DNA of 64,000 nucleotides. It comes from an uncultured delta proteobacterium (lineage in GTDB: Bacteria > Desulfobacterota > Desulfomonilia > UBA1062). The stretch covers positions 128,001 through 192,000 of the forward strand of contig CAWCTR010000007.1 of the NCBI GenBank assembly GCA_963798485.1, written 5' to 3'. The translations under genes were made by a program, and so were the position numbers. A model generated the notes under the pieces. That model did no database searches. It was not told the origin of the DNA and saw only the letters and a program-made list of their open reading frames with translations. Below, piece after piece: positions 1-35,430 of this stretch; position 1 is the first letter of the stretch; every line of letters starts with the position of its first letter.

Positions 1-1763
1 TCTTTCTGGATGGGCCTGATGTTCACGATGGGCACGCCCTTGAGCGCGCGGTCGCGCTCCGGGATCTCGTAGACCTTGGTGTGGTAGACCCGCCCCTTGT
101 TGGTGAAGTAGAGTATGGAGGTGTGGTTGGTGGCCACGAAGATGTGCTCGATGAAGTCGTCCTCGCCGGTCAACGCCCCTTTGACGCCCACACCGCCCCG
201 CTTCTGGGTGCGGTACTTGTCGAGTTCGGTGCGCTTCACATAGCCCTTGCGGGTGATGGTGACCACCATCTTCTCATCGGGGATGAGGTCTTCCATGTTG
301 AATTCGCCGATCTCGCCCTTCAGGATCAGGGTCCGCCTGGGGTCCGAGTAGTCGGCCTTGACCTCTTCCAGCTCTTTCCTGATGACATTGAGCAGCTCTT
401 TGCGGTCGGAAAGGATGAGCTCGAGCCGCCTGATCTCTTTGGTAAGTGCCGCGTGCTCATCGGCGAGCTTGTCGCGTTCCAGCCCGGTGAGCCTCTGGAG
501 GCGCATGTCCAAGATGGCCTGGGCCTGAATCTCGGAGAAGCCGAAGCGCTCCATCAGGTTTATCTTTGCCTCGGGCGGGTTGGCAGATGCCTTGATGAGG
601 GCCACAATCTCGTCGATGTGTTCTAAGGCCTTCAAGAGGCCGTCCAAGATGTGTATGCGGTCCTTTGCCTTGGCCAGTTCGAAGATGCACCTGCGGGTGA
701 CCACCTCCTCGCGGAAATCAAGGAAGGCCTGAAGCAGCTGCAAAAGACCCATGGTGGCGGGCCGGTTGTTGTGGATGGCGAGCAGGTTCATAGAGAACGA
801 GGTCTGGAGCGTGGTGAGCTTGTAGAGCTGGTTCTCGATGACGTCCAGCGGGGCACCCTTCTTCAGATCGATAACCACGCGCATGCCGTCCTTGTCAGAC
901 TCGTCGCGGATGTTGGCGATGCCGTCAATCTTCTTTTCCTGGGCCAAGAGGGCGATGCGCGTGACGAGATCGGCCTTGTTCACGGTAAAGGGGATCTCGG
1001 AGATGATGATCTTCTCCCGGTTCTGCTCTTCCTCCCTTTCCACCTTGCCGCGCACAACGATGATGCCCCTGCCGGTGCGGTAGGCCTTCTCGATCTCGCC
1101 TTCGGAAATGATGATGCCGCCGGTGGGGAAATCAGGGCCGGGGATGATCTTCATGACCTCTTGCAGGGTCAGATCGGGCCTGTCCACCAGGGCGATCAGT
1201 GCGGTCATCAGCTCGGTGGCATTGTGCGGCGGGATGCTGGTGGCCATACCCACCGCTATGCCACTAGACCCGTTCAGCAGCAGCCCCGGTATCCTCGTGG
1301 GCAGGACATCGGGTTCCTGCAGGGATTCGTCGTAGTTGGGGTGGAAATCTACGGTATTCTTTTCAAGGTCGGCGAGCATCTCCTCGGCGATGCGCGACAT
1401 CCTGATCTCGGTATACCTCATGGCAGCGGCCGGATCGCCGTCCACGCTCCCGAAGTTGCCCTGGCCGTCGACCAGGGGATAGCGCAGCGAGAACGGCTGG
1501 GCCATTCGGACGATGGCGTCATAGACCGCCTGGTCGCCATGGGGATGATATTTACCGATGACGTCACCCACGATGCGGGCGGACTTCTTGTAGGCCTTGG
1601 TGTGGGTGTTGCCCAGGTCCTGCATGGCAAACAGTATCCTTCTGTGGACGGGCTTGAGACCGTCACGCACATCAGGGATGGCGCGTCCGATGATGACGCT
1701 CATGGAATAGTCCAGGTACGAGCGCCTCATCTCCTGGTCTATGGCAACAGTGTTCGTACTCAT
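1..1763 (-). CDS. gyrA: DNA gyrase subunit A (3' end runs off the window)
   Basis: Manual translation from the ATG at 1763 gives [42 protein letters not shown]...YHPHGD...AAMRYTE. It is absent from the ORF track because there is no stop in the window. Confidence 0.97.
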
Positions 1764-26161: not shown

Positions 26162-27425
26162 GGGCGGCCGCATTATCGACCCTGCAAATAATCGGGACGA
26201 ACTCTCTGATATTCTTTTGCGTGACGGCATTATTCAGAAGGTCCTGCCTGCGCTCGGGCCTGTACAGCCTGGTGAAGAGGTTCTCGATGCAACAGGGATG
26301 TGGGTACTCCCGGGACTTATCGATATGCATGCCCACCTCAGGGACCCCGGGTATGAATATAAGGAAGACATTGCAAGCGGAAGCCTTGCAGCAGCAGCAG
26401 GCGGCATTACCACGGTGGTCTGCATGGCCAACACCGATCCGGTCAATGACAATGCCTCGGTTACTCAGTATATCCTGAAGAAGGCCTTGAGTGTGGGTCT
26501 GGTGAGGGTGCTCCCGGTTGGGGCCATGACAAAGGGGCAGCAGGGCAAGGAACTCTCTGAGATGGGGCTCATGAAAGAGGCGGGAATTGTCGGGGTTTCG
26601 GATGATGGAAGGCCTGTGGAAAACGCAGCCATCATGCGTAGCGCCATGGAGTATGCCGCCACATTCTCATTGCCCGTGATATCCCATTGTGAAGACAAGA
26701 ATCTCGCGGCAACGGGGGTGATGAATGAGGGCGCGCTTGCATCAGAGCTCGGCCTGGCAGGCATCACGCCTGCCGCCGAGGAGGTCATGGTATCCCGTGA
26801 TGTGCTGATGTCGCAATATACCGGTGTTCCTGTTCATATCACCCACATTTCCACCAAAGGGAGCCTGGAGATTATAAGGGAGGCAAGGCAGCACGGGGCC
26901 AAGGTCACCTGTGATGCCACACCGCATCATCTTCTCCTCACCGAGGAAGGTGTGCGGACGTACGATGCGAATTACAAGATGAATCCACCCCTGAGGAATG
27001 AGGCCAACAGGCATGCGTTGATAGAAGGGCTCAGGATGAACCTGATTGACTGCATTGCCACTGACCATGCGCCTCATGCCAAGGACGAGAAAGACCTGGA
27101 CTTTGACCTGGCCCCTTTCGGCATCATCGGGTTTCAGACCTTGCTGCCCTCTCTCATGAAGCTTCACCTCGATTTTGACATCGATTTCTCTCAGATCCTG
27201 GCCTGCGTGACCACAAACCCCGCCAAGATCTTGGGCATTGATGGCGGTAAGCTGAGCCCAGGTTCACGGGCCGACATTACTATCTTTGATCCGGAGGCCA
27301 CCTGGACCCTGACCGAGGAGATGATTCTGTCCAAATCTCGGAACACCCCCTTCATCGGCTGGACCTTTACCGGGAAGGTAGTGCGCACCATTGCTGAAGG
27401 AAAAACGGTCTATAGCGCTGACTAG
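26145..27425 (+). CDS. pyrC: Dihydroorotase
   Basis: DMHAHLRDPG, MANTDP, KMNPPLR, ATDHAPH. Confidence 0.96.
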   Translation: MSMWIKGGRIIDPANNRDELSDILLRDGIIQKVLPALGPVQPGEEVLDATGMWVLPGLIDMHAHLRDPGYEYKEDIASGSLAAAAGGITTVVCMANTDPVNDNASVTQYILKKALSVGLVRVLPVGAMTKGQQGKELSEMGLMKEAGIVGVSDDGRPVENAAIMRSAMEYAATFSLPVISHCEDKNLAATGVMNEGALASELGLAGITPAAEEVMVSRDVLMSQYTGVPVHITHISTKGSLEIIREARQHGAKVTCDATPHHLLLTEEGVRTYDANYKMNPPLRNEANRHALIEGLRMNLIDCIATDHAPHAKDEKDLDFDLAPFGIIGFQTLLPSLMKLHLDFDIDFSQILACVTTNPAKILGIDGGKLSPGSRADITIFDPEATWTLTEEMILSKSRNTPFIGWTFTGKVVRTIAEGKTVYSAD

Positions 27426-28555
27426 ATCATACCTGAGTCTTCCATCAGGCCTTTTACCATTTCACCGATGGCCAGGCAGCTCGTGAGCCCCGGCGACTCG
27501 ATCCCGATGAGATTGATGAGACCTGTAAGACCCCGGTCCGCCTCATGGCGGATTACGAAGTCCCGCACCGCTCCGCCGGGCGGCTGAATCTTGGGCCTGA
27601 TGCCTGCCATGTCCGGCATGAGATCTTCTTCAACAAGCATGGGTAAGAGCCTGCGGGCGCTGTCCAGGAAATCCTTTGCATGGGCCGGGTCTACATCATA
27701 GTTGATCTTGTCGACATACCTGGCATCAGGGCCGAGCCTGACCGAGCCTGAGAGGTCCTTGGTAACGTGGATACCCAGCCCGGTAAGGTCTTTTTCAGGG
27801 CTTGGGTACAACAGCCCGTTCACCAGCCCCTGCTTCCTTCCCCTTATACGGAAATATTGACCCTTGACCGGATAGATGCGGTACCCCGCAGTCTGAACAT
27901 CGATACCGGCCATGGAGGCAATGATATCCGAGTGGAGACCCCCTGAATTGATGAGTGCCCTGGTGGTAAATGCATATCGTTCCGCTGGATGTGCCTCCAC
28001 CGTGCATAAGAACCCCTCTTGGGTGAAATCAAGCCCGGCCAGGCGTGAGTTGTATAAGACCGTGCAGCCCTGGCTCAGGGCAAGGGCCTCGAGGGTTTTG
28101 ATCAACCGGTGCGAATCGATAATACCGGTTCGCGGTGAATAAAGGGCGCTTACTCCGGTCACATAAGGTTCCCTTTTTCGCAGGTCGTCCCTGGTGATCA
28201 TGATGAGCCCTTGAGCGCCGTTTTCGGCGCCCTGTCTGCGAAGACCCTCAATGGCAGGCTCTTCAATAGGGCTTGTGGCCACGATGACCTTTCCGATTCT
28301 TTGAAAGGGTATGGTATGCCTTTCACAAAACGCATACAGCAAGTGAGATCCCTCTATGCAGAGCCTGGCCTTTAACGAACCCGTTGGATAATAGATCCCG
28401 GCGTGGATCACCTCTGAGTTGCGAGAGCTTGTCTCCTTGCCGGGGCCTGATTCCTTTTCCAATACGACAATGGACCTGCCTTTTTCTGCGAGCGCACAGG
28501 CTACGGCCAGGCCCACGACGCCTGCCCCGACAATGGTGATATCCACGTGAATCAT
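27422..28555 (-). CDS. FAD-dependent oxidoreductase (L-2-hydroxyglutarate oxidase-like)
   Basis: IVGAGVVG, TSSRNSEVIHAGIYY, GIESPGLT. Confidence 0.88.
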   Translation of the reverse strand: MIHVDITIVGAGVVGLAVACALAEKGRSIVVLEKESGPGKETSSRNSEVIHAGIYYPTGSLKARLCIEGSHLLYAFCERHTIPFQRIGKVIVATSPIEEPAIEGLRRQGAENGAQGLIMITRDDLRKREPYVTGVSALYSPRTGIIDSHRLIKTLEALALSQGCTVLYNSRLAGLDFTQEGFLCTVEAHPAERYAFTTRALINSGGLHSDIIASMAGIDVQTAGYRIYPVKGQYFRIRGRKQGLVNGLLYPSPEKDLTGLGIHVTKDLSGSVRLGPDARYVDKINYDVDPAHAKDFLDSARRLLPMLVEEDLMPDMAGIRPKIQPPGGAVRDFVIRHEADRGLTGLINLIGIESPGLTSCLAIGEMVKGLMEDSGMI

Positions 28556-28767
28556 AGAACCCTTATATCAGCAAAGAGAACGAGAAAGAAGTAAAACGGA
28601 AATGAAAGAGTCCTTTGGTGAAGCATGAATATAAACACTTCAAAGCAGAGGTGTCTTAAAAAATGCTAAAATTCCACAGACCGCCTTGCCTCTATCCCTG
28701 TGATCTGGTATACCTTTCATGGTTTACTCAAGCGCTAAGCATAACAACACAATTCTTGGAGGAGGCC

Positions 28768-30534
28768 ATGGATATCAGGGATAAGATTCCGGTGATCAGG
28801 GTTGCCATTAGGGGCGCCAATGGAAGGATGGGTCTTCAGGCTATCTATGCTTCGATGGAGAATAATGAAGATATCCTTGCCAGGGCAAAAACCAAGGAGC
28901 TTACCGATAAGGATGTCTGGATAGATATAGTTTTCGGGGCCTTTACCGCAGACATCCCTACGGTGCAGCAGATTCTTGCCGGGATCATGCGTTCGGAAAA
29001 ATCAAAAATCCTGGAAGGTTATGACAAGATGGGGAGTCCCATCTTCCGTCTGAAGGCTGACGGCAAGCACGAGCTGAGGACCAAGTATCTGGAGCAGACC
29101 CTTGATGAAGAGCCACAGCGCGAGCATGTTATCCCCTTTGACCGCCAGGAGCTCATAGACTCGCCCGAGGGCCTTCCGGCTATCAAGATTCTGTCCCATG
29201 ACAAACAGGAGGTACTCTCGGTTATCCGCCACGCCAATGTCCGTCTCGGAGAACTCTCGTCAGAGGCCATCATGGACAGGGTGCTGGACACGGCCTATGA
29301 CCTGGGTGCGAATGTCTTGCTGTCATGTGTGGGAGACACGGCAAAAACGGCGGACCGGATGCAGAAGTGGCTCGACAAGATCCACGAGAAGAAATACCCC
29401 ATGGGGTTTTTAGAGTCTGCACCTGCCAAGGGCTGGGAGAAAAGGATGCTCTCCCGTCAGGATGAGATCAGCGTGCTCTGTTCAAGGAACTACAGCCCCA
29501 CAGGTACGCTGTTCAGGACCGGGATCGCACTGAAGCAGCCCCTGTTCACCTATAATACCTTTGAGTTCGGAAAGGCGGCGCAAAGGTTTAAAAAGGTTTT
29601 CGGCAGGATCATAGCGCAGATTACACAAAACGATGCCTTCAAGAATTATGCACAGATCCTTAAAAAACAGCCCACTACAATCCGGGAGATCGATGGCGAG
29701 GAGATCCTGGTGAACTACCCTCCCAACTTCCTTACCGTGACATCGCCCGACTACCTCATCTTCAGCTTCTATGAAGACAACGAATATGGCTTCATCTGTG
29801 CGTCGCTCATCCCCAATCTCAAGGCGCTTGGCCTGATTTTCCGTGACAGTGCCATGGTCGAGAAGGTCAGGGCGAATGGTCTGAAATATGAAGCTGTTAC
29901 CAATGTCCCCGGTCTCTTCGGGGCCGACTGGATCGTAAGGGCACCCCAAGAGATCATAAAAAGGGGTGGGGCCATGTCCACGAGCTCCTGCACCACAAAT
30001 GGCAACATTGTGGGAGACATCATCATGTTCCTGGCCCTGCACAGCTATTTTGACTTCTTCGCTGATACGACAAAAGATTACTATACGTGCACCGATACGG
30101 GGAAAAGGAGTAAGATCGAGGAGAAGATCGAAAAAAAGTTCTCCGAATTTAAGGGTTACCTCGAAGGAATAGTCTCCAACAGGGCCCGCATGATCAAGAC
30201 GATCTTCACGTTCTATTACGACCAGGTATCCTTCATCAACACCGATATGCAGCACGGTCTTACCCGATCAGAATCTCCTGAGGTCCTGGATTACCTGAGA
30301 GAGACTTCTTCCGGTTCCCAGACCGAGGTCCCCAAGTTTCTCTCTTTACCGAGCCGAGAGCAGGAATATCTTAAGGGTCTCAAGGCTCTACTCGAGGACC
30401 AGATTGCCGTGGAAAAGCACGAGCAAGAAAAGGCAGGCCTGGCTGAACAGCTGAAAAATATAGATTCAAGTATCAAGACAATCGACAATAGTATTAACAT
30501 TGTTGCCATACTTGAACACGTAGAGGGCAATTAG
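28768..30534 (+). CDS. GAPDH-like protein with rearranged segment order
   Basis: Strong GGAGGAGG RBS; motifs RVAIRGANGRMG, ESAPAK, YEDNEYGF, SSCTTN, QHGLT, ETSSG in non-canonical order (see findings). Confidence 0.8.
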   Translation: MDIRDKIPVIRVAIRGANGRMGLQAIYASMENNEDILARAKTKELTDKDVWIDIVFGAFTADIPTVQQILAGIMRSEKSKILEGYDKMGSPIFRLKADGKHELRTKYLEQTLDEEPQREHVIPFDRQELIDSPEGLPAIKILSHDKQEVLSVIRHANVRLGELSSEAIMDRVLDTAYDLGANVLLSCVGDTAKTADRMQKWLDKIHEKKYPMGFLESAPAKGWEKRMLSRQDEISVLCSRNYSPTGTLFRTGIALKQPLFTYNTFEFGKAAQRFKKVFGRIIAQITQNDAFKNYAQILKKQPTTIREIDGEEILVNYPPNFLTVTSPDYLIFSFYEDNEYGFICASLIPNLKALGLIFRDSAMVEKVRANGLKYEAVTNVPGLFGADWIVRAPQEIIKRGGAMSTSSCTTNGNIVGDIIMFLALHSYFDFFADTTKDYYTCTDTGKRSKIEEKIEKKFSEFKGYLEGIVSNRARMIKTIFTFYYDQVSFINTDMQHGLTRSESPEVLDYLRETSSGSQTEVPKFLSLPSREQEYLKGLKALLEDQIAVEKHEQEKAGLAEQLKNIDSSIKTIDNSINIVAILEHVEGN

Positions 30535-30577
30535 GGGCTTGACACCTCAATTTCGTTTGGACTATGAACCCTGACAA

Positions 30578-30650
30578 GGGCCCATAGCTCAATTGGTAGA
30601 GCCACCGGCTCATAACCGGTAGGTCCCTGGTTCGATTCCAGGTGGGCCCA
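30578..30650 (+). tRNA. tRNA with CAT anticodon, most likely tRNA-Ile2 (lysidine type)
   Basis: GGGCCCA acceptor stem with paired 1-72, so not an initiator; CCGG-CTCATAA-CCGG anticodon arm as in Ile2 tRNAs; CCA not encoded. Confidence 0.9.
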
Positions 30651-30730: not shown

Positions 30731-30762
30731 AAAGGGGTGCTCATAAGCAGCATCCCTTTTTT
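30731..30762 (+). terminator. Intrinsic terminator downstream of the tRNA
   Basis: AAAGGGGTGCT-cataagc-AGCATCCCTTTTTT hairpin with T tract. Confidence 0.7.
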
Positions 30763-32410: not shown

Positions 32411-32524
32411 GAGATAATGAAATGATAATTGCTGAACTATGCACGTTCATTCTACCGGGCCGCAGGGCGCCTAGGCTTATTTTATACATTAAGCGTATTC
32501 CACAAACCAAGGAGGAATGAGGCA

Positions 32525-33007
32525 ATGTTAAAAATGTTCAGGTCAAACAAAAAAGGTTTTACATTAATCGAGTTGATGATCGTCGTGGCGATCATCGGTA
32601 TCCTGGCGGCCATCGCAATCCCCATGTATTCCGGTTACACCAAGAGGGCCAAAGTATCGGAAATCACCAATGCAATGGGCGCAGTGTCAAATTCGGCCAT
32701 GGAGATATACCACTCCAACCAGACCTTCCCAACTGCTGGAACCTTCAGCATAGCGGCGATTGCAAACACCTATGGTGTGACAGTTCCCGGCACCTATCTT
32801 AAGGGGGGTCTTACTAATGGTGCTACTGCAATTACTATTACTAAAGACGATGCTGCTGGACAATTTGTAATCCAAGCTAACATTGATGGTACGGTGATAG
32901 CACTCAATGGAGGACAAGCTGACACTAACATTATACTAACGACAACCATTGGACAGAAGGGTGTCTGGTCAGGTTCGGCCCAGACCCAGTACATCCCCAA
33001 GAACTAG
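32525..33007 (+). CDS. pilA: Type IVa major pilin
   Basis: Prepilin leader [11 protein letters not shown] followed by [22 protein letters not shown]; AGGAGG RBS; own terminator. Confidence 0.93.
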
Positions 33008-33432: not shown

Positions 33433-35430
33433 ATGTTCATGAGGTATGTTCGAAATATCGGCGTTATTATCATAGTCGTTATATCTCTTTTCCCTCCTCT
33501 TTGCAACGCGGCTTCCCTTCTTATTACATGGAAAGCAGTTACCGACACGGATCTGGCCGGGTACATGGTGTACTACGGCACCCAATCGGGAACGTACGGG
33601 GCTGTTGCAGATGTGCAAACGGCCACGAGTTATCAGATAAGCAATGTTCAGAATGGATACACATACTATATTGCTGTGAGTTCGTATGACAACTCCGGGA
33701 ACGAGTCGAGCCGATCAAATGAAGTAAGTGTTTATATTCCTGTCCCTGCGGCAGTCGTAGACACCACACCCCCGACAGGAAGCGTGGTGATCAACTCAGG
33801 GGCAGCGACTACTACGACCGATTTAGTGACTCTCACACTGAGCGCCAGCGATGCAGGCGGAACAGTGACAGGGATGAAGATCAGCAATGACGGGGTGAGC
33901 TACTCCAGCGAATTTGTCTATACCACCAGTTGCACGTGGACGCTTTCAAGCGGCTATGGGAATAAGACGGTGTATGTCCTCTTCAAGGATGCTGCAGGTA
34001 ACTGGATGAAGTCGCCTGCCACTGCCACGATCCAGGTCGTAGACACCATACCCCCGACAGGAAGCGTGGTGATCAACTCAGGGGCAGCGACTACTACGAC
34101 CGGTTTAGTGACTCTCACCCTGAGCGCCAGTGATGCAGGCGGAACAGTGACAGGGACGAAGATCAGCAATGACGGGGTGAGCTACTCCAGCGAATTTGTC
34201 TATACCACCAGTTGCACGTGGACGCTTTCAAGCGGCTATGGGAATAAGACGGTGTATGTCCTCTTCAAGGATGCTGCCGGTAACTGGATGAAGTCGCCTG
34301 CCACCGCCACGATCCAGGTCGTAGACACCATACCCCCGACAGGGAGCGTGGTGATCAACTCAGGGGCGGCGACTACTACGACCAGTGCAGTGACCCTAAC
34401 CCCGAGCCCCGGCGATGCAGGTGGAACAGGGAGCGCAGCGACCAAGGACCAGTCGGGAACCTCCCTTATAAAACCGGAAATCATCTCTCCGGAAAACAAT
34501 GCGGTCGAAGTCTCGCTGAGGCCTCTCCTGAAGACGACTGCTCTCGCCAAGAACTATATACTGACAGAGTGGGAGATCAGCAATGATAAAGGCGATGTAC
34601 TTCTCGATCTAAAGAGCTCTACGCAACGTACCGAGTTGGTCGTTCCTGAGCTGATTCTTGACCCTGCGATGAAAAACTACTGCAGGGTGAAATTCTATGA
34701 CGATCAAAACAATGCAACAGAATGGTCGGACCCGGTGGCATTCGAAACGGTGCAAATCGATCCAGAAGATCTTAATAAAAATGGCATACCGGATGATCAG
34801 GAACTGCCCTTAGGTGAAGCTGTGAGTTTAAATAAGACTGGGGTTTCAGACCGTGATCAGGATAATATGAAAGCCCTGGTTTCTGTTGTGGGAGAAGAAG
34901 ACATAATCCTTACGGCATCGACAAACTGCAAGGCTATACGATATTTTAAATCAATTGATCCTACCTCGATCCAAGATTCTGCAGGGAAGCCAGGGGCTCT
35001 TCCCATAGGGCTGATCGATTTTAAGGTTGAGGTAGCCAACCCCGGTGATTTTGCCGAGGTGGTTATAACTCTATCCGACCCGGCCCCTCAAGGTGCAAAG
35101 TGGTATATGTATGATGAGACAAACGGGTGGAGGGTATACCCCCATGCCACATTCAGTGATGATCGCATGAAAGTGACTTTACAGTTGAAAGATGGAGATC
35201 CGGATTACGGAGATACGGATGGAGTTGCCAATGGGATTATCGTTGATCCAGGCGGTATTGGCGTAGGAGAGATTCAACAGGCAAATGCAGATAGTAGTGG
35301 TAGCGGAGTATGTTTCATAGCTACATCGAGTCATTGTTCTCCATTGCAGGATGTGTGGGATGTCATTATTCTATTGATACTCTTATTAATTTCAAACATT
35401 AGCGGGTACAGAAAGAATATTGTTGGATAA
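33433..35430 (+). CDS. Secreted surface protein: FN3 domain, 94-aa tandem repeats, choice-of-anchor-U-like domain, C-terminal CFIAT+TM sorting signal
   Basis: Signal peptide; DLAGYMVYYGT...YYIAVSSYDNSGNES (FN3); DGDPDYGDTDGVANGIIVDPGG; GSGVCFIAT followed by a hydrophobic helix and basic residues. Confidence 0.8.
   Translation: MFMRYVRNIGVIIIVVISLFPPLCNAASLLITWKAVTDTDLAGYMVYYGTQSGTYGAVADVQTATSYQISNVQNGYTYYIAVSSYDNSGNESSRSNEVSVYIPVPAAVVDTTPPTGSVVINSGAATTTTDLVTLTLSASDAGGTVTGMKISNDGVSYSSEFVYTTSCTWTLSSGYGNKTVYVLFKDAAGNWMKSPATATIQVVDTIPPTGSVVINSGAATTTTGLVTLTLSASDAGGTVTGTKISNDGVSYSSEFVYTTSCTWTLSSGYGNKTVYVLFKDAAGNWMKSPATATIQVVDTIPPTGSVVINSGAATTTTSAVTLTPSPGDAGGTGSAATKDQSGTSLIKPEIISPENNAVEVSLRPLLKTTALAKNYILTEWEISNDKGDVLLDLKSSTQRTELVVPELILDPAMKNYCRVKFYDDQNNATEWSDPVAFETVQIDPEDLNKNGIPDDQELPLGEAVSLNKTGVSDRDQDNMKALVSVVGEEDIILTASTNCKAIRYFKSIDPTSIQDSAGKPGALPIGLIDFKVEVANPGDFAEVVITLSDPAPQGAKWYMYDETNGWRVYPHATFSDDRMKVTLQLKDGDPDYGDTDGVANGIIVDPGGIGVGEIQQANADSSGSGVCFIATSSHCSPLQDVWDVIILLILLLISNISGYRKNIVG
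33757..34430 (+). repeat. Near-identical 282-bp intragenic tandem repeats (2 full, 1 partial)
   Basis: Units start with GTAGACACC at 33757, 34039 and 34321 (period 282 bp = 94 codons). Confidence 0.95.

Follow-up and report, generated by a model that had tools for sequence, protein, structure and literature searches.

A gene in the window, by which we mean the whole 64,000-nucleotide stretch of DNA analyzed here (positions 128,001 to 192,000 of contig CAWCTR010000007.1, assembly GCA_963798485.1, from an uncultured delta proteobacterium of the UBA1062 lineage), encodes a 588-amino-acid (aa) protein, P0001, that is very probably a homolog of the glyceraldehyde-3-phosphate dehydrogenase (GAPDH) fold with its sequence blocks in the permuted order A-C-B. 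It is likely to be a divergent, lineage-specific member of the class I GAPDH/erythrose-4-phosphate dehydrogenase fold in which two adjacent blocks have been exchanged. Few enzymes are as conserved or as well studied as GAPDH, whose linear architecture is regarded as fixed. The protein described here retains the motifs and the predicted fold of this parent, its blocks are reordered, and the new order is fixed in one lineage.

Order of the GAPDH motifs

For canonical GAPDH, we distinguished three blocks. Block A (residues 1 to ~128) comprises the Rossmann strands up to SAPAK; block B (~128 to 222) holds the NAD domain's two edge strands, the SCTTN cysteine helix, the histidine strand, the S-loop, and STGAAK; and block C (~225 to 338) consists of the RVPT sheet, the WYDNExGY strand, and a C-terminal helix leading back to the NAD domain. 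By script, the corresponding motifs of the 588-aa protein were located at residues 16 (GANGRMG), 187 (CVG), 217 (SAP), 240 (RNYSP), 337 (DNEYG), 378 (TNVPG), 407 (SCTTN), 496 (HGLT), and 514 (SSGS). Their equivalents in the canonical GAPDH that the genome encodes on contig 17 lie at 8, 97, 121, 234, 315, 134, 152, 180, and 210, respectively. The protein is therefore not collinear with class I GAPDH and has the order A-C-B. All the motifs listed in the initial annotation of this DNA were found where it had placed them, with the N terminus in its original position. That annotation had also called the swap noncircular, since the N terminus stays in place; the arrangement is formally a circular permutation of B plus C behind A, so the difference is one of wording only.

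Compared with class I GAPDH (GapA; PDB 9fl1, 7bew, and 8br4), in which the blocks run A-B-C, the 588-aa protein is A-C-B and gives no match to Gp_dh_N or Gp_dh_C. Its glycine loop is GxxGRMG, as in DapB; it adds three family-specific parts, namely, a beta insertion of ~100 aa in the NAD domain, a helical insertion of ~70 aa after the cysteine helix, and a helical tail of ~60 aa; and its S-loop is ~12 residues shorter. The same differences in topology and insertions set it apart from D-erythrose-4-phosphate dehydrogenase (Epd/GapB; PDB 2xf8, 2x5j, and 8zn1). With the N-terminal domain of DapB (PF01113), it shares the motif VAIxGAxGRMG. This likeness is limited to the first beta-alpha unit. Beyond it the protein resembles GAPDH, as do all of the structural matches, and DapB is not represented in the 50 rows of the VIA output. 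A description of a permuted GAPDH was not found in full-text literature searches, whose coverage left out most subscription journals.

Profile evidence for homology

The family alignment A1 (27 sequences; effective number of sequences [Neff], 2.1) was compared by hhalign with 28 Desulfobacterota GAPDHs translated from genomes. Four local matches were obtained, out of order relative to GAPDH: residues 10 to 63 with GAPDH 2 to 59 (the N-terminal Rossmann unit), 177 to 224 with 87 to 128 (STG…SAPAK), 317 to 344 with 295 to 322 (…WYDNEWGY), and 403 to 411 with 148 to 156 (ISNASCTTN). These matches scored 32.8 to 38.3 (P = 4 × 10−4 to 2.5 × 10−3). The best score against the reversed GAPDH profile was 13.8, and 12 column-shuffled profiles gave 13.0 to 24.5, so that 13 of 13 controls were at or below 24.5.

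When the segments were compared separately, segment A aligned over residues 10 to 68 with GAPDH 2 to 64 (P = 1.8 × 10−4) and over 176 to 224 with 86 to 128 (P = 1.1 × 10−3), segment C (aa 226 to 365) aligned over 309 to 344 with 287 to 322 (P = 4.1 × 10−5), and segment B (aa 366 to 530) aligned over 403 to 412 with 148 to 157 (P = 2.3 × 10−4). The initial annotation had stated that its reading would fall if the middle segment lacked a GAPDH profile match; segment C, which occupies the middle, has one. With the distant homologs P0104 and P0108 included, the match of segment B reached over GAPDH 128 to 156 (P = 3.1 × 10−4), which takes in VTNVPG/TIVMGVN. Independently of hhalign, the HMMER family profile gave a marginal match (E = 8.2 × 10−4) in genome G377 to residues ~232 to 326 of a 336-aa GAPDH-like open reading frame of canonical order, i.e., to the RVPT…DNE third of that frame. 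No GAPDH match was obtained by hhalign for either insertion (helical or NAD-domain) or for the tail (P = 0.3 to 0.55); the tail is thus not a recognizable remnant of a second C block.

Predicted fold

An AlphaFold2 model computed from A1 had a mean predicted local distance difference test score (pLDDT) of 85.8 and a predicted template modeling (TM) score of 0.87, with low confidence only at residues 229 to 231 and 501 to 524, and it shows the two-domain fold of GAPDH. A Foldseek search of the PDB returned GAPDH or erythrose-4-phosphate dehydrogenase in 37 of the 38 rows shown (best E = 4 × 10−7; TM score to target, ~0.5), and the remaining row was 2ep7_B, an untitled structural-genomics entry. 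In the VIA alignment of the model, the aligned range extends to residue 355 to 361. Elements of the model could be paired with proposed equivalents in the secondary structure of canonical GAPDH (Table 1).

The motif SSCTTN (residues 406 to 411) is invariant in 27 of 27 and in 7 of 7 aligned sequences, and the helix begins at residue 408, as expected for the start of the catalytic-cysteine helix. Likewise, H496-G-L-T499 is invariant and stands at the end of a strand in the model. Cys408 and His496 may be adjacent. The proposal that both catalytic residues are retained is supported for the cysteine, which is invariant and profile aligned; the equivalences drawn for the histidine (MQHGLT) and for TSSG, on the other hand, lack profile support (P = 0.63). 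The span from His to SSG is 18 residues here versus 30 in canonical GAPDH, provided that the His and SSG equivalences are right, and only if they hold does the shortening of the S-loop proposed from the sequence stand. AlphaFold also predicts a helical insertion (residues 408 to 486) and three C-terminal helices (528 to 587), in agreement with the helical additions described at the outset.

Several results weigh against the GAPDH assignment. Neither Gp_dh_N (PF00044) nor Gp_dh_C (PF02800) matched the protein even at an E value of ≤10, and the split, out-of-order Pfam matches that had been anticipated were therefore not seen. NCBIfam held nothing relevant for the protein; phmmer found no match in the PDB; and hmmsearch of the PDB with the family profile returned only DapB (1arz residues 5 to 30; E = 2.1). 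An exhaustive phmmer search of 1.84 billion representatives yielded 17 matches, all of them family members or fragments and none a GAPDH. The hhalign matches are each weak when taken individually (probability, 12 to 70%), and the part of the protein with the histidine and SSG (aa 480 to 530) has no GAPDH profile support (P = 0.63), also with the distant homologs added. As for the structure, residues 501 to 524 have a pLDDT of <50 in the full model, and sequential aligners superpose only model residues ~8 to 360, that is, the part without segment B. Folded alone from 40 sequences, segment B reached a pLDDT of 61 with a core below 50, and only a helical hairpin was confident; this model was rejected as a query for structure searches, since a low-confidence model gives meaningless matches. 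Finally, the gene context is mostly inherited synteny with no clear pathway.

The only Pfam match was to DapB_N (aa 10 to 49; E = 0.014), below the cutoff, and a genome-wide search with PF02800 found the canonical gene on contig 17 and not the gene for the 588-aa protein. The ESM Atlas returned only short DapB_N-like fragments, all with scores of 0.78, and was uninformative. A profile search that included the distant members gave 98 matches and, within the range of 249 to 1,031 aa, no new lineage or intermediate form.

Conservation and integrity of the locus

Forty-six loci share the A-C-B order; they come from separate species-level genomes, which are independent metagenome-assembled genomes (MAGs). 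At the protein level, 96 clusters match, and every name given to them by the sources is "hypothetical protein." In six of six ortholog pairs, the ratio of nonsynonymous to synonymous substitution rates (dN/dS) was 0.04 to 0.11. Invariant residues include G19, R20, G22, S217 to P219, R240, E336 to G341, S406 to N413, H496 to T499, and S515 to S517. Conservation is highest in the core segments (0.84 to 0.87, including the part with the histidine and SSG; segment B2, 0.87), with the lowest values in the tail (0.57), linker (0.58), and helical insertion (0.62).

We also compared the locus with independent metagenome assemblies. Contigs from two peat metagenomes of different studies span positions 28622 to 30604 without a joint (97 differences), and a sediment metagenome contains contigs with zero differences over 29164 to 29552 and 29547 to 30067, which means that both junctions are crossed. 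In these contigs, as in the homologs, the order is the permuted one; the collinear order that, according to the initial annotation, would have refuted its reading was not encountered.

Two cases stand apart. In a close relative with 94% identity (L049:8001-9766 and G145:C2:252202-253967), the gene has a frameshift, is matched in three pieces, and contains one in-frame TGA; this copy could be a pseudogene or reflect a long-read indel error. One MAG (L064 and L073; G114:C7 and C50) contains the entire syntenic block twice, with 65% identity to the query in either copy, which looks like two strains binned together rather than a true duplication.

Distribution

Besides G000, 49 of 51 other genomes in the window's family carry the permuted gene, and none of 70 genomes of the sister family does. 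Across a sample of 401 genomes from the phylum, strong matches were confined to the seven genomes of the window's family. The gene is a conserved core gene that is near universal in one uncultured anaerobic lineage, whose communities come from peat, sediment, and digesters. Isolate labels among the carriers are Phox-21, UBA1062, SL3, SV3, SM3, and LM3. Five loci (L042, L044, L045, L046, and L051) come from MAGs of phosphite-oxidizing enrichments (Phox-21, SL3, SV3, SM3, and LM3). Together with a preprint (bioRxiv 10.1101/2020.12.28.424620), the labels assign the window's family to the UBA1062 order of Desulfomonilia_A, to which the dissimilatory phosphite oxidizers "Ca. Phosphitivorax" and "Ca. 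Cosmobacter" belong.

Homologs of permuted order, sought in other genomes at the suggestion of the initial annotation, extend beyond the 46 loci. Outside the UBA1062 order, compact forms keep the A-C-B order: P0097 (459 aa), from a groundwater MAG; P0104 (454 aa), from a 12-member cluster; and the fragment P0108. When 146 genomes of the phylum to which P0097 belongs were searched, one had this form. The compact homologs lack the C-terminal tail, and in P0097 the helical insertion after the cysteine helix is largely absent and the beta-rich insertion of the NAD domain is shorter. Homologs at 26 to 31% identity still keep Cys408, His496, the glycine-rich loop, SAP, and DNE without change.

Canonical GAPDH co-exists with the 588-aa protein in its genome. 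Of 52 genomes of the family, 48 have a canonical Gp_dh_C (33 of the 34 high-quality ones), and so does the P0097 genome. On this co-occurrence, the permuted gene is an addition and neither a replacement nor the glycolytic enzyme.

Proposed mechanism, function, and origin

How one three-dimensional fold can be rebuilt from a different thread is suggested by secondary structure assignment (DSSP) of the model together with the partial superposition. The chain would pass from SAPAK to the catalytic sheet through a short new linker (aa ~222 to 233). Block C would then finish in the NAD domain with its return helix (aa 340 to 358), from where a new 17-residue linker would carry the chain to the NAD-domain strands of B. 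The rebuilding would be possible because the return helix ends in the NAD domain and the new linkers lead onward. Since each of the exchanged blocks holds pieces of both domains, the chain would cross between domains three times, compared with twice in canonical GAPDH. The shorter loop from His to SSG and the new helical parts may alter the contacts between subunits.

The glycine loop, SAP, Arg240, DNE, SSCTTN, HGLT, and SSG are invariant and the gene is under strong purifying selection, from which it appears somewhat probable that the protein is a catalytically active cysteine dehydrogenase of the GAPDH or Epd kind. In such an enzyme, Cys408 would attack the aldehyde to form a thiohemiacetal, NAD(P)+ would take up the hydride, and phosphate or water would resolve the thioester. 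Epd resolves its thioester by water. A phosphorus oxyanion other than phosphate may take this role. That the substrate is a sugar-phosphate aldehyde has, in our estimate, slightly less than an even chance of being right; the retained Arg, Thr, and SSG positions would point to a phosphorylated aldehyde. R240, T499, and S515-G516 are invariant, and R240 falls within the segment that is profile aligned to the RVPT…DNE third of canonical GAPDH. Together with S407/T409, these residues presumably correspond to the substrate-phosphate positions of GAPDH. Nucleotide genes recur nearby (in Desulfomonilia, carB or pyrR-pyrB-pyrC; beside the distant homolog, a purine-nucleoside-phosphorylase-like gene), and the protein may act on a pentose- or nucleotide-derived phospho-aldehyde. 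Whether the swap, the short S-loop, and the helical module together gave rise to a new substrate and quaternary structure serving a core function of UBA1062-type Desulfomonilia is doubtful.

The rearrangement likely arose by duplication of the B-C block and loss of the flanking copies: the block would have been duplicated, after which the first B and the last C would have been lost. No duplication intermediate or remnant was found in the profile search with distant members or by hhalign of the tail.

Alternative explanations

That the swapped order is an assembly or binning artifact would be in keeping with the source, an MAG with 6.96% contamination, and is the least credible of the alternatives, its probability being close to nil. 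The order and length are shared by 46 loci of other assemblies and by 96 protein clusters, both junctions are bridged without joints by contigs of three other runs, and dN/dS is 0.04 to 0.11; the 46 loci and the independent junction-spanning contigs already refute this explanation. A spurious resemblance, in which an unrelated Rossmann protein with chance motifs pulled AlphaFold toward GAPDH, is highly improbable. It would account for the missing GAPDH matches in the hidden Markov model libraries, and the model was built on a shallow alignment (27 sequences; Neff, 2.1).

Two further alternatives accept GAPDH homology and differ in what the protein does. It could be a second genuine glyceraldehyde-3-phosphate dehydrogenase isoenzyme that uses the substrate of GapA with a different cofactor preference, direction, or regulation, the permutation being catalytically neutral. 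The full set of substrate-phosphate positions (Arg240, Thr499, S407/T409, and S515-G516) appears to be kept, and in the deepest-branching genus the permuted gene lies two genes downstream of canonical gap; we nevertheless consider this reading unlikely. A noncatalytic GAPDH-fold protein (a pseudoenzyme, scaffold, or regulator), with helical parts that bind and motifs kept for folding or ligand sensing, is less credible still. The large lineage-specific helical additions, the lack of an evident pathway context, and the low-confidence catalytic loop region (501 to 524) of the model would fit such a role. However, Cys408, His496, the glycine-rich loop, SAP, and DNE remain invariant at 26 to 31% identity, conservation is lowest in the tail (0.57) and the helical insertion (0.62), not in the catalytic motifs (0.84 to 0.87), and the compact homologs do without the tail.

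Significance

A permuted GAPDH would be a natural, selected rearrangement whose moved blocks each draw on both domains and whose active site is put together again from a different thread. It would offer a clean test of how far a two-domain Rossmann enzyme tolerates rethreading and of the duplication-deletion model of permutation. The protein is covered by no Pfam or NCBIfam family, and it marks an annotation blind spot, as a near-universal, strongly constrained gene is invisible to both. Such an additional cysteine dehydrogenase could supply a missing step in the carbon or phosphorus metabolism of the lineage. The gene merits real interest both for the study of protein evolution and as a core enzyme, so far unannotated, in a lineage that is uncultured.

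Gene structure and expression signals

Table 1. Features of the permuted GAPDH-like gene, its surroundings, and its product (positions in the window; residues of the 588-aa protein)
Feature	Residues	Position	Strand	Basis or remark
FAD-dependent oxidoreductase (DAO family), divergent neighbor		27422..28555	-	Below both model cutoffs
Promoter: -35 TTGCCT (28686-28691), 17-nt spacer, extended -10 TGgTATACC (28706-28714)		28686..28714	+	Conservation
Ribosome-binding site GGAGGAGG		28758..28765	+	GGAGG kept in 15/15 upstream alignments
Coding sequence, permuted GAPDH-like protein (P0001)	1-588	28768..30534	+	Stop codon 30532-30534
Segment A, Rossmann NAD(P)-binding part	1-225	28768..29442	+	GANGRMG, CVG, SAPAK; ~GAPDH 1-128
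Beta-rich NAD-domain insertion	~60-165	28945..29262	+	DSSP of model, alignment; no GAPDH profile match (P = 0.34)
Segment C	232-358	29461..29841	+	RNYSP (Arg240) to FYEDNEYGF plus return helix 340-358; ~GAPDH 225-335
Strands in model	234-240, 246-255			Proposed equivalent: RVPT hairpin
Helix in model	267-287			Proposed equivalent: helix after RVPT hairpin
Strands in model	315-337			Proposed equivalent: sheet ending in DNE
Helix in model	340-358			Proposed equivalent: return helix
New linker	359-375	29842..29892	+	DSSP; joins old C terminus to old residue ~125; conservation, 0.58
Segment B	376-525	29893..30342	+	VTNVPG strand, AMS strand, SSCTTN helix, His496 strand, short loop, SSG514-516; ~GAPDH 128-222
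Short strands in model	377-378, 402-404			Proposed equivalent: two NAD-domain edge strands
Helix in model	from Cys408			Proposed equivalent: Cys helix
Cys408 codon, putative catalytic nucleophile	408	29989..29991	+	SSCTTN motif, invariant
Helical insertion between Cys helix and His strand	413-486	30004..30225	+	DSSP helices 408-438, 444-469, 472-486
Long strand in model, ending in His496	487-496			Proposed equivalent: His strand
His496 codon, putative catalytic base	496	30253..30255	+	Invariant; presumed equivalent of GAPDH His
C-terminal helical tail	526-588	30343..30531	+	DSSP, alignment; conservation, 0.57; no GAPDH similarity (P = 0.55)
tRNA-Met (CAT)		30578..30650	+	44 nt 3′ of stop codon, same strand
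Terminator-like hairpin		30731..30759	+	After tRNA-Met; none between gene and tRNA

The reading frame is open from 28663 to 30534, and the ATG at 28768 is used as the start. We take it to be the biological start because nearly all homologs are 584 to 592 aa long and begin with MDIRDK, in agreement with the 588-aa reading. The intact frame of this length, its ATG, and the ribosome-binding site GGAGGAGG are all present as first described, and so is the proposed promoter. The elements CCTTGCC and TGnTAT are preserved in 15 of 15 aligned orthologous upstream regions in which the flanking sequence has diverged. A consensus promoter scan did not include the TTGCCT-17-TATACC site among its listed sites; the promoter call was retained despite this miss because the −35 and extended −10 elements are conserved.

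Since the first terminator-like hairpin comes only after the tRNA-Met gene, the permuted gene and this tRNA may share one transcript. Contigs from an RNA library (run X20) cover 28774 to 28948 and 29403 to 29614 at ~95 to 98% identity, a hint that the gene is transcribed in a close relative; the depth figures were uninformative on this point. The depth of metagenome contigs is far higher over the tRNA-Met gene, because the tRNA is common to many organisms.

Gene neighborhood

The common order of the locus is lepB, pyrR, pyrB, pyrC, the divergent FAD oxidoreductase gene, the permuted gene, tRNA-Met, NIF3, a gene for a zinc-ribbon protein, and a pilin gene. The FAD oxidoreductase scored 272 bits with the LhgO (L-2-hydroxyglutarate oxidase) model (cutoff, 299) and 161 bits with that of type 2 glycerol-3-phosphate oxidase (cutoff, 460). 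The two genes are neighbors in 36 of 46 loci, among them L060 and L061, which have no other synteny; in six or more loci that offer enough flanking sequence, the oxidoreductase gene is missing. If the oxidoreductase oxidizes glycerol-3-phosphate, the pair could form a triose-phosphate module.

In the deepest-branching genus, canonical gap (Gp_dh_N plus Gp_dh_C), carB, and the permuted gene stand in a row on one strand (L076:3831-9770 and L070:3830-9770), which may be a trace of a local duplication or of a shared regulon. In the P0097 genome (L077:6693-7847), a gene for a 384-aa purine-nucleoside-phosphorylase-like protein lies directly upstream on the same strand; the protein scores 152 bits with PRK08202, below the cutoff, and has extra length.

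Farther along the window, downstream of the type IV pilin gene (32429 to 33007), positions 33433 to 35430 encode a 665-aa secreted-looking protein with three near-identical tandem repeats of ~105 aa (VVDTxPPTGSVVINSGAATTT…) and a hydrophobic C-terminal segment.

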